From Verrucomicrobiota bacterium (GTDB taxonomy: Bacteria; Verrucomicrobiota; Verrucomicrobiia; Chthoniobacterales; UBA6821), in the NCBI GenBank assembly GCA_008932965.1, contig WBXG01000045.1, forward strand, positions 1-13,912: a stretch of 13,912 nucleotides of DNA, given 5' to 3'. The position numbers were made by a program, and so were the translations under genes. Positions 1-11,155 of the stretch are shown one piece after another (the first letter of the stretch is position 1; each line of letters opens with the position of its first letter). A model generated the notes under the pieces. The model did not search any database, was not told the origin of the DNA, and worked only from the letters and a program-made list of their open reading frames with translations.

Positions 1-80
1 CCCAGTGTCAAATGCTCGCCTGGCATGCCCCCTTAGCCTCGCCTCCTCCTCATTACATTAGTATGAAATATTCAGGTTAG
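1..80 (+). repeat. 3' portion of an intergenic repeat element (copy C, cut by the window edge), ending in the 20-bp terminal motif
   Basis: 61-80 GTATGAAATATTCAGGTTAG matches the right-end motif of the elements at 2940-2959 and 9325-9344. Upstream, cctggcatgccc..cctcgcc..cctcattaca aligns with cccggcatccc..cgcccgcc..cctcataaca of element A, with indels of roughly 25 nt in total. Confidence 0.7.
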
Positions 81-152
81 TACAACGTAGCAGTGATGAG
101 ACTTCCGTGTTACCAATAACTCTGGCCACAGAAGATTCACTAGTGAGACCTT

Positions 153-172
153 AAATGAAATAGTTAGGTTAG
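153..172 (+). repeat. Solo copy of the 20-bp intergenic motif, 27 nt upstream of the gyrA start
   Basis: AAATGAAATAGTTAGGTTAG is 16/20 identical to the copy at 61-80. It has the same orientation and lies 92 bp downstream of that copy. Confidence 0.6.
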
Positions 173-198
173 AGTTCGCTTTCAACAATTCTTTTATC

Positions 199-2766
199 TT
201 GTACCACCAAAACGAAAAAATAGAACTCATCGATGTTTCTGAAGAAATGTCGCGGTCCTTCCTCGACTACTCGATGTCGGTCATTATTTCTAGAGCTCTG
301 CCCGATGCTCGAGATGGATTAAAGCCATCCCAGCGTCGCATTCTCTATGCAATGAAAGAGCTTGGGGTCATGCCCGGACGCAAGCACCTCAAGTGCGCTA
401 AGATTGTGGGAGAGACAATGGGTAATTATCACCCGCATGGAGACCAAGCCATTTATCCAACCCTGGTGCATATGGCACAGTCGTGGGCCATGCGTGAGAT
501 GCTCATTGAAGGGCAGGGTAACTTTGGATCTGTTGAGGGTGACCCACCAGCATCCATGCGTTATACAGAGGCACGTCTGCGGCCATTAGGAGCCCTCCTT
601 ATGGAGGACATGGAAAATAATACAGTCGATTTTGTTCCCAACTACGATGATACACGTGAAGAACCGACCGTCTTTCCAGCTGCTTTCCCTAACCTTCTTG
701 TCAATGGTGGCACCGGCATTGCAGTGGGTATGGCGACAAATCTCCCCCCCCATAATCTTGTAGAAATTATTGATGCAATCTGTGCTCAAGTAGAGAATCC
801 CGAGATCACCTTAGAGGAGATCATGGTGCATGTAAAAGGTCCTGACTTCCCAACCGGATGCCAGCTCTGTGGGACACAGGGAATTCGGCAATATTTTGAA
901 ACAGGGCGTGGGTCAGTCAAAGTCCGTGGTCGTGCTGGTTTAGAGGAAATTAAAGGCGGACGCGAACAGATCGTTATTACCGAAATTCCTTACAACGTGA
1001 ATCGTGCCTTGCTCGTAGAACGGATTGCTGGCCTTGTGAATGAAAAAGTATTGCCAGAAATTAGTGCTATTCGTGATGAGTCTGATGAAAATACACGTGT
1101 GGTTATCGAGCTCAAGCGAGATGCTATTCCTAAAGTAGTCATCAACAATCTCTACAAACATACGGCACTGGAATCTTCTTTTTCCGTGATGATGCTAGCC
1201 ATTGATCGTGGGCGTCCCAAGCTTCTCTCACTCAAAGAAGCCATCGCATGCTTTATCGAACATCGTCGTGAGGTCATTTTACGCAGGACTCAATATCTCC
1301 TAGATCAAGCAGAGCTGCGTGCTGAAAAGCTGGAGGGGTATTTGATTGCCTTGGCCAATTTAGATGAATTCATCCGTATTATTCGTGATTCTGCTAATCG
1401 TGAAGAGGCAAAAGTCAAATTGCTTGCATTTGAATTTACAAAAAAGCAAGTAGAGCATTTTGGTCTTCAGGTGCGTCGTGAAGAGCGTCTCGTCGATGGA
1501 AGCTACTTCATGAGCGAGCTCCAAGTCGATGCGATCTTAGAATTGCGTCTCTATCAATTAACCGGTCTCGAGCGGGATAAAGTGATTGGAGAATATACAG
1601 AGCTTCTCAACGTTATCATTGATCTTAATGATATCTTGGCACGTGAAGAACGGGTGCTAGCACTCATTACTTCGGAGCTTCTTGCAATTAAAGAAAAGCA
1701 TGGTCGTCCTCGTCTTACTGAGATTATTCCAGCAGAAGGAGAAATTTCTATTGAAGACCTCATTGCCAATGAAGGATGCATTATTACGATCACTCATAAA
1801 GGTTTTATGAAACGGACCGCAGTTAGTTCCTACCGTGCTCAGAAAAGAGGTGGAAAAGGGGTTGTTGGGATGACCACACGCGAGGCTGCCAATGAAACAG
1901 AGGAAGGTGATTTTGTAGAACATCTTTTTACTGCCAGTGCCCATGACTACCTCGTCTTTTTTACTAAGAGCGGACGTTGTTATGTAGAGCGTGTTTATGA
2001 AATTCCAGAGATGAGTCGTGCCGCCAAAGGACGCTCTATAGCCAATATCTTGAATCTTCAGCCAGGTGAGCAGATTGCAGCAACCCTCCGTATTCAATCT
2101 AAAAATAGTGGTGGTGTTGGAGCTGTTGATACAACCTGGGATCCGGAGCTCCATATCTTTTTTGTCAGTCGCAGTGGTATTGTTAAAAAATCAAACCTGG
2201 CTGACTTCGCAAACATTCGAAAGGGAGGAATCATTGCCATTCAAATTGAAGAGGGAGATGAACTCATCGATGCTGTGCAGACCAATGGTCATGACGAAGT
2301 CGTACTTGTGACCAAGCAAGGTCAAAGCATCCGATTTAGTGAAGAGGAGCTTCGAGATCAAGGCCGCAAGACCGTTGGTGTCTGGGGTATTCGCCTAGCT
2401 GCTAATGATGCTGTGGTAGCTATTGCTGTTGTCTCTCCTCAGGCAACACTTCTTGTGGCCGGTGAACAAGGAATTGGCAAGCGAACCTCCTTCGATCATT
2501 ATCGCAAGCAATCCCGAGGTGGTAAGGGAATCATTACTATGAAAACGGGAGAAAAAACAGGGGTGGTGGTTGGGGCATTAGCAGTGACCGATCAAGATGA
2601 GATCATGCTCATCACTTCGGGTGGACAAATGGTACGAACTCGTGTCGGAGAAATCCGAGAAGTCGGGCGTAACACCATGGGGGTTAAACTCATTAATCTT
2701 CCCAAGAAAGAAAAACTGCAAGCGATTGCTCCAGTAGTCAGTGAAGAAGAGGCTCCATTGATTTAG
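199..2766 (+). CDS. gyrA: DNA gyrase subunit A
   Basis: 855-aa ORF with a TTG start that matches the expected N-terminal length ([40 protein letters not shown]). Catalytic-Tyr motif [10 protein letters not shown] and QRDR block [17 protein letters not shown] are present. The GyrA-box-like QKRGGKG and a repeated C-terminal beta-pinwheel region distinguish it from ParC. Confidence 0.97.
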
Positions 2767-2774
2767 ATTAGGGT

Positions 2775-10633: not shown

Positions 10634-11043
10634 AAAATAATACTGCTTCTTAGTGTTTCTGCTAAGCCAACGAAGTTTTTTAAATGCTCGTCGAGAAGGT
10701 CGACGGGAGCATTGTTGCTTTCTATGGTGGGTAGGGAAAAGCTACTTATTAAAAAAAGCTGGAACCCATCGGGGGGGATTTCAAGTCGTGCATCAGAGGT
10801 TCTGTGATAGGTAAACATGAGACGGAGTAAATCAAAGAGATGATTACTTCCTGTCATATCGATTCCTGGAAACAGCTCGCAGTAGATCCAAAGTTTACCG
10901 TCTTGAGGATCTTCTTGAAAATCGACTCCAAAAGATTCCTTCAGATTTAATCGTATAGTTCCCTCATCTCCTAAGTCGAGTGTTGAGCCAAGACCTATCT
11001 TGGATCCAAAGGCTTTCAATAAATCAGAGATCTCGGTTTTCAT
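10630..11043 (-). CDS. Small acidic protein with CesT/SycE-like (class I type III secretion chaperone) sequence architecture
   Basis: 137 aa with 21 Asp+Glu against 11 Lys+Arg. The layout matches class I chaperones: an N-terminal helix (ISDLLKAFGSKIGL), then 'L-D-x-x-G-x-x-x-L' (TLDLGDEGTIRLNL), then F-x-V-D-F (FGVDFQEDPQDGKLWIYCEL). A central helix (NHLFDLLRLMF) and a C-terminal helix (LLDEHLKNFVGLAETLR) follow. It sits immediately upstream of, and is translationally coupled to, the 430-aa ORF. A YbjN-like fold is an alternative. Confidence 0.6.
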   Translation of the reverse strand: MKTEISDLLKAFGSKIGLGSTLDLGDEGTIRLNLKESFGVDFQEDPQDGKLWIYCELFPGIDMTGSNHLFDLLRLMFTYHRTSDARLEIPPDGFQLFLISSFSLPTIESNNAPVDLLDEHLKNFVGLAETLRSSIIL

Positions 11044-11090
11044 GAATCGTTGAAGTATAATCCTTAAAACGTGAATGAAAAAAGAAAAAC

Positions 11091-11110
11091 TGATGAAATA
11101 TTCGGGCTAG
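11091..11110 (+). repeat. Copy of the 20-bp intergenic motif (distal of a tandem pair) upstream of glgB
   Basis: TGATGAAATATTCGGGCTAG, in the same orientation as glgB. Confidence 0.7.
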
Positions 11111-11135
11111 GCCTTCTATAAGCTGTAATAGATTG

Positions 11136-11155
11136 GTATGCAATATTCGGGCTAG
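11136..11155 (+). repeat. Copy of the 20-bp intergenic motif (proximal of a tandem pair), 36 nt upstream of the glgB ATG
   Basis: GTATGCAATATTCGGGCTAG, exactly 45 bp downstream of the copy at 11091-11110. Confidence 0.7.

Follow-up and report, generated by a model that had tools for sequence, protein, structure and literature searches.

Why should one 20-bp sequence recur in gap after gap between the genes of a short bacterial contig, and what, if anything, does it do there? The question is raised by contig WBXG01000045.1 of a freshwater Verrucomicrobiota bacterium of the order Chthoniobacterales (GenBank assembly GCA_008932965.1, a metagenome-assembled genome; 1.66 Mb, 105 contigs, 42.8% G+C), which was analyzed over its entire 13,912 nucleotides, referred to here as the window. 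A first-pass annotation had counted nine intergenic copies of the 20-mer in the window, treated the 20-mer itself as the unit, and left two options for its nature: a genome-wide dispersed repeat or a widely used protein-binding site. Our analysis suggests that the motif is the terminus of a nonautonomous DNA transposon, a miniature inverted-repeat transposable element (MITE), the ends of which match those of an IS1380-family insertion sequence (IS) found in a congener. We put the probability of this explanation, IS1380-type mobilization included, at about 0.92.

The motif is neither a chance recurrence nor a peculiarity of the window. A search with the consensus proposed in the annotation (GTATGAAATATNCGGGYTAR), allowing at most three mismatches on both strands and using shuffled sequences as the control, recovered eight of the nine copies at identical coordinates and on identical strands (61, 2774(-), 2940, 6084, 9159(-), 9325, 11091, and 11136); the expectation from window shuffles is 0.01 matches, and eight matches were reached in 0 of 200 shuffles. 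The remaining copy, at 153-172, proved degenerate, with five mismatches to the consensus and no significant match to the element profile. The claim that every sizeable intergenic gap is occupied holds, as all five such gaps (1-198, 2767-2968, 5998-6213, 9163-9340, and 11044-11191) contain at least one copy; the motif is absent from the window's three tiny gaps of 17-24 bp. Across the 1.66 Mb of this genome (hereafter G000) the pattern occurs 224 times exactly and 744 times with at most three mismatches, while the reversed pattern used as a control gave no match in G000 and 0-1 matches across the genomes scanned.

When the 744 matches were aligned with their flanks, information fell to zero immediately after motif position 20 and persisted inward for more than 60 bp. 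This one-sided edge of conservation identifies the 20-mer as the border of a longer unit, a 176-bp palindromic element, rather than as the unit itself. Neighboring matches are mostly inverted with respect to each other (minus followed by plus), forming 199 pairs with an outer span that peaks at 184-186 bp (94 pairs) and again at 274 bp. A consensus built from 114 oriented copies is 184 bp long (TTAA-CCCGGATATTTCATACTGATC ... GATCAGTATGAAATATCCGGG-TTAA) and has perfect 21-bp terminal inverted repeats (TIRs). The element proper is 176 bp (a 184-bp span with both flanking duplications) or 266 bp (a 274-bp span), the longer class being the 184-bp-span element with a 90-bp internal addition. Folded as RNA, the consensus forms a single long hairpin (-79.4 kcal/mol, z -8.6), and the whole element is therefore an imperfect palindrome. 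The 20-mer of the first-pass annotation consists of 16 bp of the 21-bp TIR plus a 4-bp YTAR target duplication.

Several comparisons bear on the duplication. The 4-bp flanks on the two sides are identical in 99 of the 199 pairs; the mean under permutation is 52, and none of 10,000 permutations reached 99. A chi-square test over the four YTAR words gave a p value of 5e-16, the first and fourth bases covarying between the sides, and where the flanking word is nonpalindromic it is present as a direct repeat 13 times and as an inverted one twice. In addition, at 22 places two ends overlap, the shared stretch being precisely the tetranucleotide, as expected of two insertions at one target. The target words are mostly TTAA or CTAG, with TTAA the most frequent. 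Matches to the element profile cover 66.9 kb in ~512 blocks, equivalent to 4.0% of the entire genome and to 25.6% of the DNA outside open reading frames (ORFs), and the frames that remain open across the element encode only 60-90 residues, with no transposase gene among them. The family thus combines the marks by which a MITE is recognized: TIRs, a target-site duplication, small size with high copy number, an autonomous element with the same ends (in a congener), and presence/absence polymorphism.

The autonomous element was found by searching the genus for DDE transposases, which returned one locus bounded by the motif. It is a 1,578-bp IS on contig C121 of the congener G004 (G004:C121), with the structure CTAA-CCCGCATATTTCATACTGAGG ... 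ATGTGAAATATCCGGG-CTAG; its ends are also given as CCCGCATATTTCATAC and GTGAAATATCCGGG. Its single ORF encodes an intact 451-amino acid transposase, which scores 393.2 bits against the IS1380-family model NF033539 (cut-off 180; profile positions 2-418 of 419) and 542.7 bits against PF13701, and at least two further copies of the IS in G004 end at contig edges. Members of the IS1380 family generate 4-5 bp duplications and have ends starting with CC, according to ISfinder. The G004 element resembles IS1380, ISEcp1, and ISPme1 in its size of ~1.6 kb, its single ORF, its ends that start with CC, its 4-bp duplication, and its passing of the family models; the window elements, in contrast, are 176-bp derivatives that lack a transposase gene and have an interior unrelated to that of the IS. 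G000 itself contains a trace of the IS, a 288-bp remnant on contig C83 (G000:C83, 640-1111) that is 90% identical to positions 126-413 of the G004 element, contains a TAG stop, and directly adjoins the right end of a MITE. Judged by these shared termini, an IS1380-family DDE transposase would recognize the ends and move the elements in trans, and the protein that binds the ends is most likely this transposase, not a regulator. Two other candidates were dropped. An IS5-family parent had been suggested by the YTAR duplication, but the matching IS belongs to the IS1380 family, and PF01609 alone found nothing in G000. Similarly, 17 longer inverted pairs of 1-2.7 kb were considered as full IS copies; the transposase searches of G000 gave the C83 remnant only, and these pairs are taken to be neighboring independent ends that flank ordinary genes.

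The distribution of the family is patchy even among close relatives. With the pattern restricted to two mismatches, the 13 genomes of the genus contain 0, 5, 5, 16, 21, 31, 62, 118, 133, 153, 566, 585, and 634 copies; six genomes of the sister genus yielded no copy, and other members of the order had three at most. When the genomes of 185,579 species were scanned with the 25-bp end, matches were confined to metagenome-assembled genomes that bear the label Spartobacteria, Chthoniobacterales, or Verrucomicrobiia and come from lakes and comparable sources. Individual sites are polymorphic as well. The element at the secA stop is present in only two of 12 genomes, G000 and its closest relative G006, and the other 10 congeners have none at this position, with G005 carrying an independent copy 53 bp downstream of it. 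MITE sequence directly follows the gyrA stop in only three of 12 genomes, namely G000, G006, which has the orthologous copy, and G004, which has two plus-strand solo ends; no motif occurs within 700 bp past the gyrA stop in the nine other congeners. A further empty site lies within hisD, where G003 reads GGTATAAGC-TTAA-CGAGGCTGCAG and G000 reads GGTATCGAC-CTAG-(176-bp MITE)-CTAG-CGAGCCTGCAAG, and where the HisD protein of G003 is without exactly the inserted residues. One locus from another family of the same order (L002; G021:C12, 1505-1681) contains one pair of variant ends in inverted orientation, TTATGAGATATGCGGG and TTGTGAGATATGCGGG, 177 bp apart, which suggests that related low-copy MITEs exist outside the genus.

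Four observations weigh against a MITE mobilized by an IS1380-type enzyme. The IS and the MITE share only their termini (22 and 16 bp) and have unrelated interiors, such that their partnership rests on terminal identity; transposase searches found no intact transposase in the G000 assembly; both full-length copies in the window have imperfect duplications (TTAA/CTGA and GTAA/TTAA); and 346 of the 744 ends (~46%) have no partner. We attribute the unpaired ends to decay, nesting, and assembly breaks, and solo ends would be products of decay or recombination. As only a broken IS fragment is present in G000, its MITE copies are probably immobile fossils by now. Full copies have a nearest-neighbor identity with a median of 90.6%, a mode of 96-98%, and a maximum of 97.8%, values that point to a fairly recent amplification, although one that is probably over in this genome.

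Within the window, the elements and the genes between which they lie are arranged as follows; gyrA, secA, glgB, and the prepilin-like gene are named from reading the sequence and its translations.

1-80, plus strand: right-hand part of a MITE cut by the contig start, with its TIR at 61-76 and flank TTAG at 77-80 (nhmmer model positions 109-184 at window positions 7-80, E 9e-10).
153-172, plus strand: the degenerate motif-like 20-mer AAATGAAATAGTTAGGTTAG, at best a decayed remnant, perhaps of a solo end.
199-2766, plus strand: gyrA, with the stop codon TAG at 2764-2766.
2774-2959, plus strand: full-length MITE, with TTAA at 2774-2777, left TIR at 2778-2793, right TIR at 2940-2955, and flank CTGA at 2956-2959.
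2969-5997, minus strand: cluster of HlyD, ABC ATPase, and FtsX-MacB permease genes, the ABC ATPase named from its translation.
6084-6103, plus strand: solo right end (TIR 6084-6099 plus CTAA; two mismatches) upstream of secA, in the gap between divergent genes; the other parts of the element are missing.
6214-9162, plus strand: secA, with its stop codon TAA (9160-9162) inside the flanking tetranucleotide of the next element.
9159-9344, plus strand: full-length MITE, with left flank GTAA at 9159-9162 and right flank TTAA at 9341-9344 (nhmmer 119 bits, E 1.3e-36, model positions 2-184).
9341-10633 and 10630-11043, minus strand: two ORFs with no Pfam matches.
11091-11110, plus strand: solo end, the first of two tandem ends upstream of glgB (two mismatches).
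11136-11155, plus strand: solo end with ~20 bp of element interior (one mismatch; nhmmer model positions 2-43, E 3e-4), 37 bp upstream of the glgB start at 11192.
11192-13498: glgB.
13520-13912: beginning of a prepilin-like gene, the product of which has a prepilin-type N-terminal segment, FTLLELLIVISIIAIMASLA; the ORF runs off the contig end.

The first full-length copy begins 8 bp past the gyrA stop and matches model positions 1-182 (nhmmer 164 bits, E 1.6e-50); its right flank, CTGA, is a decayed duplication, and its two ends pair with each other when folded as RNA (-55.5 kcal/mol, z -3.8). The second is framed by convergent stop codons, that of secA in its left flank and that of the minus-strand ORF 9341-10633 in its right. 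The gaps at 2767-2968 and 9163-9340 consist almost wholly of these two copies. A short hairpin (GGGGTTTTCAAAAAAAAGTACAACCCC, 6049-6076) lies just upstream of the 6084 solo end in the divergent gap between the permease gene and secA, and Rfam models at gathering thresholds have no match within the window. Prepilin-type N-terminal segments such as that at the contig end are common in Verrucomicrobia.

Comparison with the closest relative indicates where this arrangement has changed. The window contig and G006:C69 differ structurally in three respects, and all three coincide with MITE sequence. Specifically, G006 has the order gyrA, full MITE, truncated end, and secA, contiguous and without the ABC cluster, whereas in G000 3.1 kb of ABC cluster lie between the 2774-2959 MITE and the 6084 solo end. 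A DNA search of five congeners found no DNA-level counterpart of the cluster, only short ABC-ATPase motif matches, and the cluster was probably acquired in a lineage-specific manner at a site rich in MITEs. We rejected the idea that the cluster is a MITE-bounded composite or an ISEcp1-like transposable module: the outer ends are already at the same positions in G006, which is without the cluster, and the ends that directly flank it are in direct, not inverted, orientation. At the site corresponding to 6084, the element interior extends ~20 bp further in G006, with the sequence CTGCCTCCTCGTCACGATCAGTATGAAATAAGCGGGCTAA. The second difference begins within the MITE downstream of secA, where homology with G006 breaks at ~9281 and resumes at 10465. 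The ORF at 9341-10633 (430 amino acids) has only its first 84 residues in common with G006, at 60% identity, and together with the ORF at 10630-11043 has 39% G+C; it is a variable gene beside a MITE breakpoint. The third difference is an indel located between two directly repeated end sequences: the 45-bp stretch 11091-11135, which comprises one of the two tandem ends, is missing in G006, and the end at 11136-11155 is shared.

The position of the window elements against stop codons is repeated throughout the genome and follows from the sequence of the ends. Read inward, an end has the form YTAR-CCCGNATATTTCATAC-TGATC, and its three reading frames meet three fates: an immediate stop on the TAR of the target, a stop on the TGA at position 21, or, when read as YTA-RCC-CGN..., no stop. 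In 146 cases an end is reached by an ORF that is 100 or more codons long; 94 of these ORFs, secA included, terminate on the flank's TAR and 21 on the TGA, and 24 continue into the element. A crude ORF map places 87.7% of the genome in ORFs. YTAR sites that carry no element total 18,688 in coding and 2,949 in intergenic sequence, and 422 such sites coincide with stop codons; YTAR occupancy is estimated at ~0.2% for coding, ~12% for intergenic, and ~18% for stop-codon sites. The prediction that a genome scan would find the motif in excess of chance and preferentially outside coding sequence is thus borne out, with 744 copies and with coding YTAR sites used ~50-100 times less than intergenic ones. 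Because YTAR contains TAA or TAG and is duplicated, insertion at a stop codon would rebuild the stop and leave the protein unchanged, and such regeneration, combined with purifying selection in an 88%-coding genome, would lead copies to fill nearly all intergenic gaps and to abut stop codons. Random insertion at YTAR followed by purifying selection explains the occupancy pattern. Special targeting of stop codons is unneeded, given an occupancy of ~18% against ~12% at other intergenic YTAR sites.

Coding sequence is, moreover, not entirely free of the element. The first-pass annotation had seen no copy inside a coding region, which is true of the window's own genes, but the genome as a whole has at least 14 full copies inserted in frame within genes. 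With the requirement that an ORF remain open over 60 codons or more to either side of a paired element, 14 of the 199 paired elements (7%) are located inside long ORFs, and all 14 are in frame 0. The net length is divisible by three in every one of these, versus 46% of all elements. Their hosts include hisD, aroB (two copies), glnD, nadE, addA/addB-like genes, an amino-acid permease gene, and others, most of the names coming from reading translations. The Pfam NAD_synthase domain of NadE is thereby broken up into two segments, and in AroB the C-terminal domain is interrupted. Frame 0 of the consensus (TTA-ACC-CGG...) is free of stop codons in both orientations, a property found in ~3.4% of interior shuffles, and the net insertion is 180 or 270 bp, that is, 60 or 90 codons, where the in-frame reading of the 274-bp class rests on individual copies, as the consensus of this class came out at 273 bp. 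A stop-free frame together with additions of 180 or 270 bp would mean that the copies that survive inside genes do so as in-frame inserts of 60 or 90 codons.

These features invite the idea that the transposon has itself been shaped by selection for coding compatibility, as would be seen in a frame that is stop-free in both orientations, in sizes of 60 and 90 codons, and in a YTAR target that rebuilds stops. We regard this as a tentative proposal that has the odds somewhat against it. If it is true, the same features let the family reach 4% of a streamlined, 88%-coding genome, and the family, for which a parent IS1380-type transposase can be identified, would provide the first experimentally tractable model for the origin and spread, inside protein-coding genes, of selfish DNA resembling the Rickettsia palindromic elements (RPEs) discussed below.

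A further proposal, which would add to a MITE origin and not replace it, is that many copies have been co-opted by the host, with the hairpin behind stop codons acting as a terminator or mRNA stabilizer and the in-frame peptides being tolerated or useful as surface loops. The strong fold of the consensus, the 94 genes that end on an element flank, the rarity of an interior that is open in both orientations, and modal net lengths of exactly 60 and 90 codons are all in keeping with it. However, the estimated occupancy of stop-codon YTAR sites is only ~1.5 times that of other intergenic YTAR sites, for which the survival of neutral insertions suffices. Furthermore, no T-tract follows the hairpin and no terminator is listed at the elements, individual copies fold far worse than the consensus (z -3.8 and -2.6), and the elements are absent from the orthologous sites in most congeners. 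Widespread co-option is therefore unlikely in our view, and we infer no host function for the copies.

The second option of the first-pass annotation, a widely used protein-binding site, found no support, in contrast to its first, a dispersed repeat, which stands as a genome-wide, MITE-like one. Under the binding-site option, the motif would serve a global host regulator as its operator or promoter element and would be retained upstream of numerous genes for the control of their transcription. The window taken by itself lends this some appeal, as its five solo or truncated plus-strand copies all point to the start of the next gene, gyrA, secA, or glgB. This orientation does not extend to the genome as a whole, where solo ends face gene starts 107 times and gene ends 102 times, with no bias. 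Nor does any sigma-70-like site overlap the motif, promoter-like sites in the window numbering 22 against 22.5 expected by chance, and the promoter/operator reading was rejected on these two grounds. A regulatory site would, in addition, not be expected to have a sharp boundary on one side only, inverted pairs at a fixed spacing of 176 bp, and a 4-bp duplication, and copy numbers that range from 0 to 634 within one genus are unlike a conserved regulon. Taken together, these data make a regulatory site very improbable.

Least probable of all is a repetitive extragenic palindrome (REP) or bacterial interspersed mosaic element (BIME) spread by a REP-associated tyrosine transposase (RAYT; an IS200/IS605-like Y1 transposase), which would fit a dense, mostly intergenic repeat and the one Y1_Tnp (PF01797) homolog in the genome (G000:C1:14949-15287, E 2.9e-13), but which is contradicted by a 20-mer that is not itself a palindrome, by a 176-bp unit that has the TIRs and 4-bp duplication that REPs lack, and by a DDE-type IS1380 element that carries the same ends. 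The Y1_Tnp homolog lies within a 351-amino acid open frame, for which no link to the motif was seen, and could be an IS200/IS605-type or RAYT-like gene.

Returning to the MITE, the family belongs to a kind of element that is already known, a MITE with in-frame survivors of the type described for RPEs. Like RPEs, which are short (~150-180 bp), palindromic repeats dispersed in a small genome, it has an appreciable fraction of its copies in frame within unrelated housekeeping genes, to which they add a conserved peptide while leaving the ORF intact (Ogata et al. 2000, 2002, as summarized in PMC10969869). The two differ in their hosts, Verrucomicrobiota (Chthoniobacterales) here and Alphaproteobacteria for RPEs, and in that the present element has clear TIRs, a 4-bp YTAR duplication, an identifiable IS1380-family parent, and a majority of copies that are intergenic or on stop codons. 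We know of no established transposase partner for RPEs. By analogy, the element may be said to work like an RPE, and membership is not claimed.

The Correia elements (CREE) of Neisseria, which are 100-160 bp long, have 26-bp repeats and a TA duplication, and create promoters and RNase III sites, offer a second likeness: they too are MITEs with TIRs, very abundant in a small genome, mostly intergenic and near genes, and able to form long RNA hairpins. The present element, in contrast, has a 4-bp YTAR duplication and no promoter signal, and its ends differ in sequence from Correia ends; neither the TA duplication nor the 26-bp Correia ends that would mark it as a member were found. The same is true of the 20- to 40-bp palindromic unit without target duplication that defines REPs and BIMEs. 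A more distant parallel is the eukaryotic transposon piggyBac, which inserts at and duplicates TTAA, the word most often used here; piggyBac is strictly confined to TTAA, in contrast to the YTAR preference of the present element. Transposases of the piggyBac type are regarded as related to the prokaryotic IS1380 transposases, and the latter have been used as the outgroup (PMC10813416). A 2024 review of MITEs (PMC10969869) does not mention IS1380-derived MITEs, and the literature that we searched contained no description of this family, its IS1380 parentage, its verrucomicrobial host, or MITEs derived from IS1380 elements. An RPE-like element outside the Rickettsiales with a recognizable candidate transposase partner would render in-frame selfish DNA experimentally approachable.

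For the genome itself, the elements matter in several practical respects. In approximately 7% of genes the stop codon comes from the duplicated target of an element, and the 60- or 90-residue inserts in some enzymes are not to be read as novel domains. Most of the sizeable intergenic gaps owe their existence to a MITE. Many contig breaks fall in MITEs as well: the window contig begins inside one, and 107 of the 744 motif matches lie within 250 bp of an end of one of the 105 contigs, which makes the repeat a main cause of fragmentation of the assembly.

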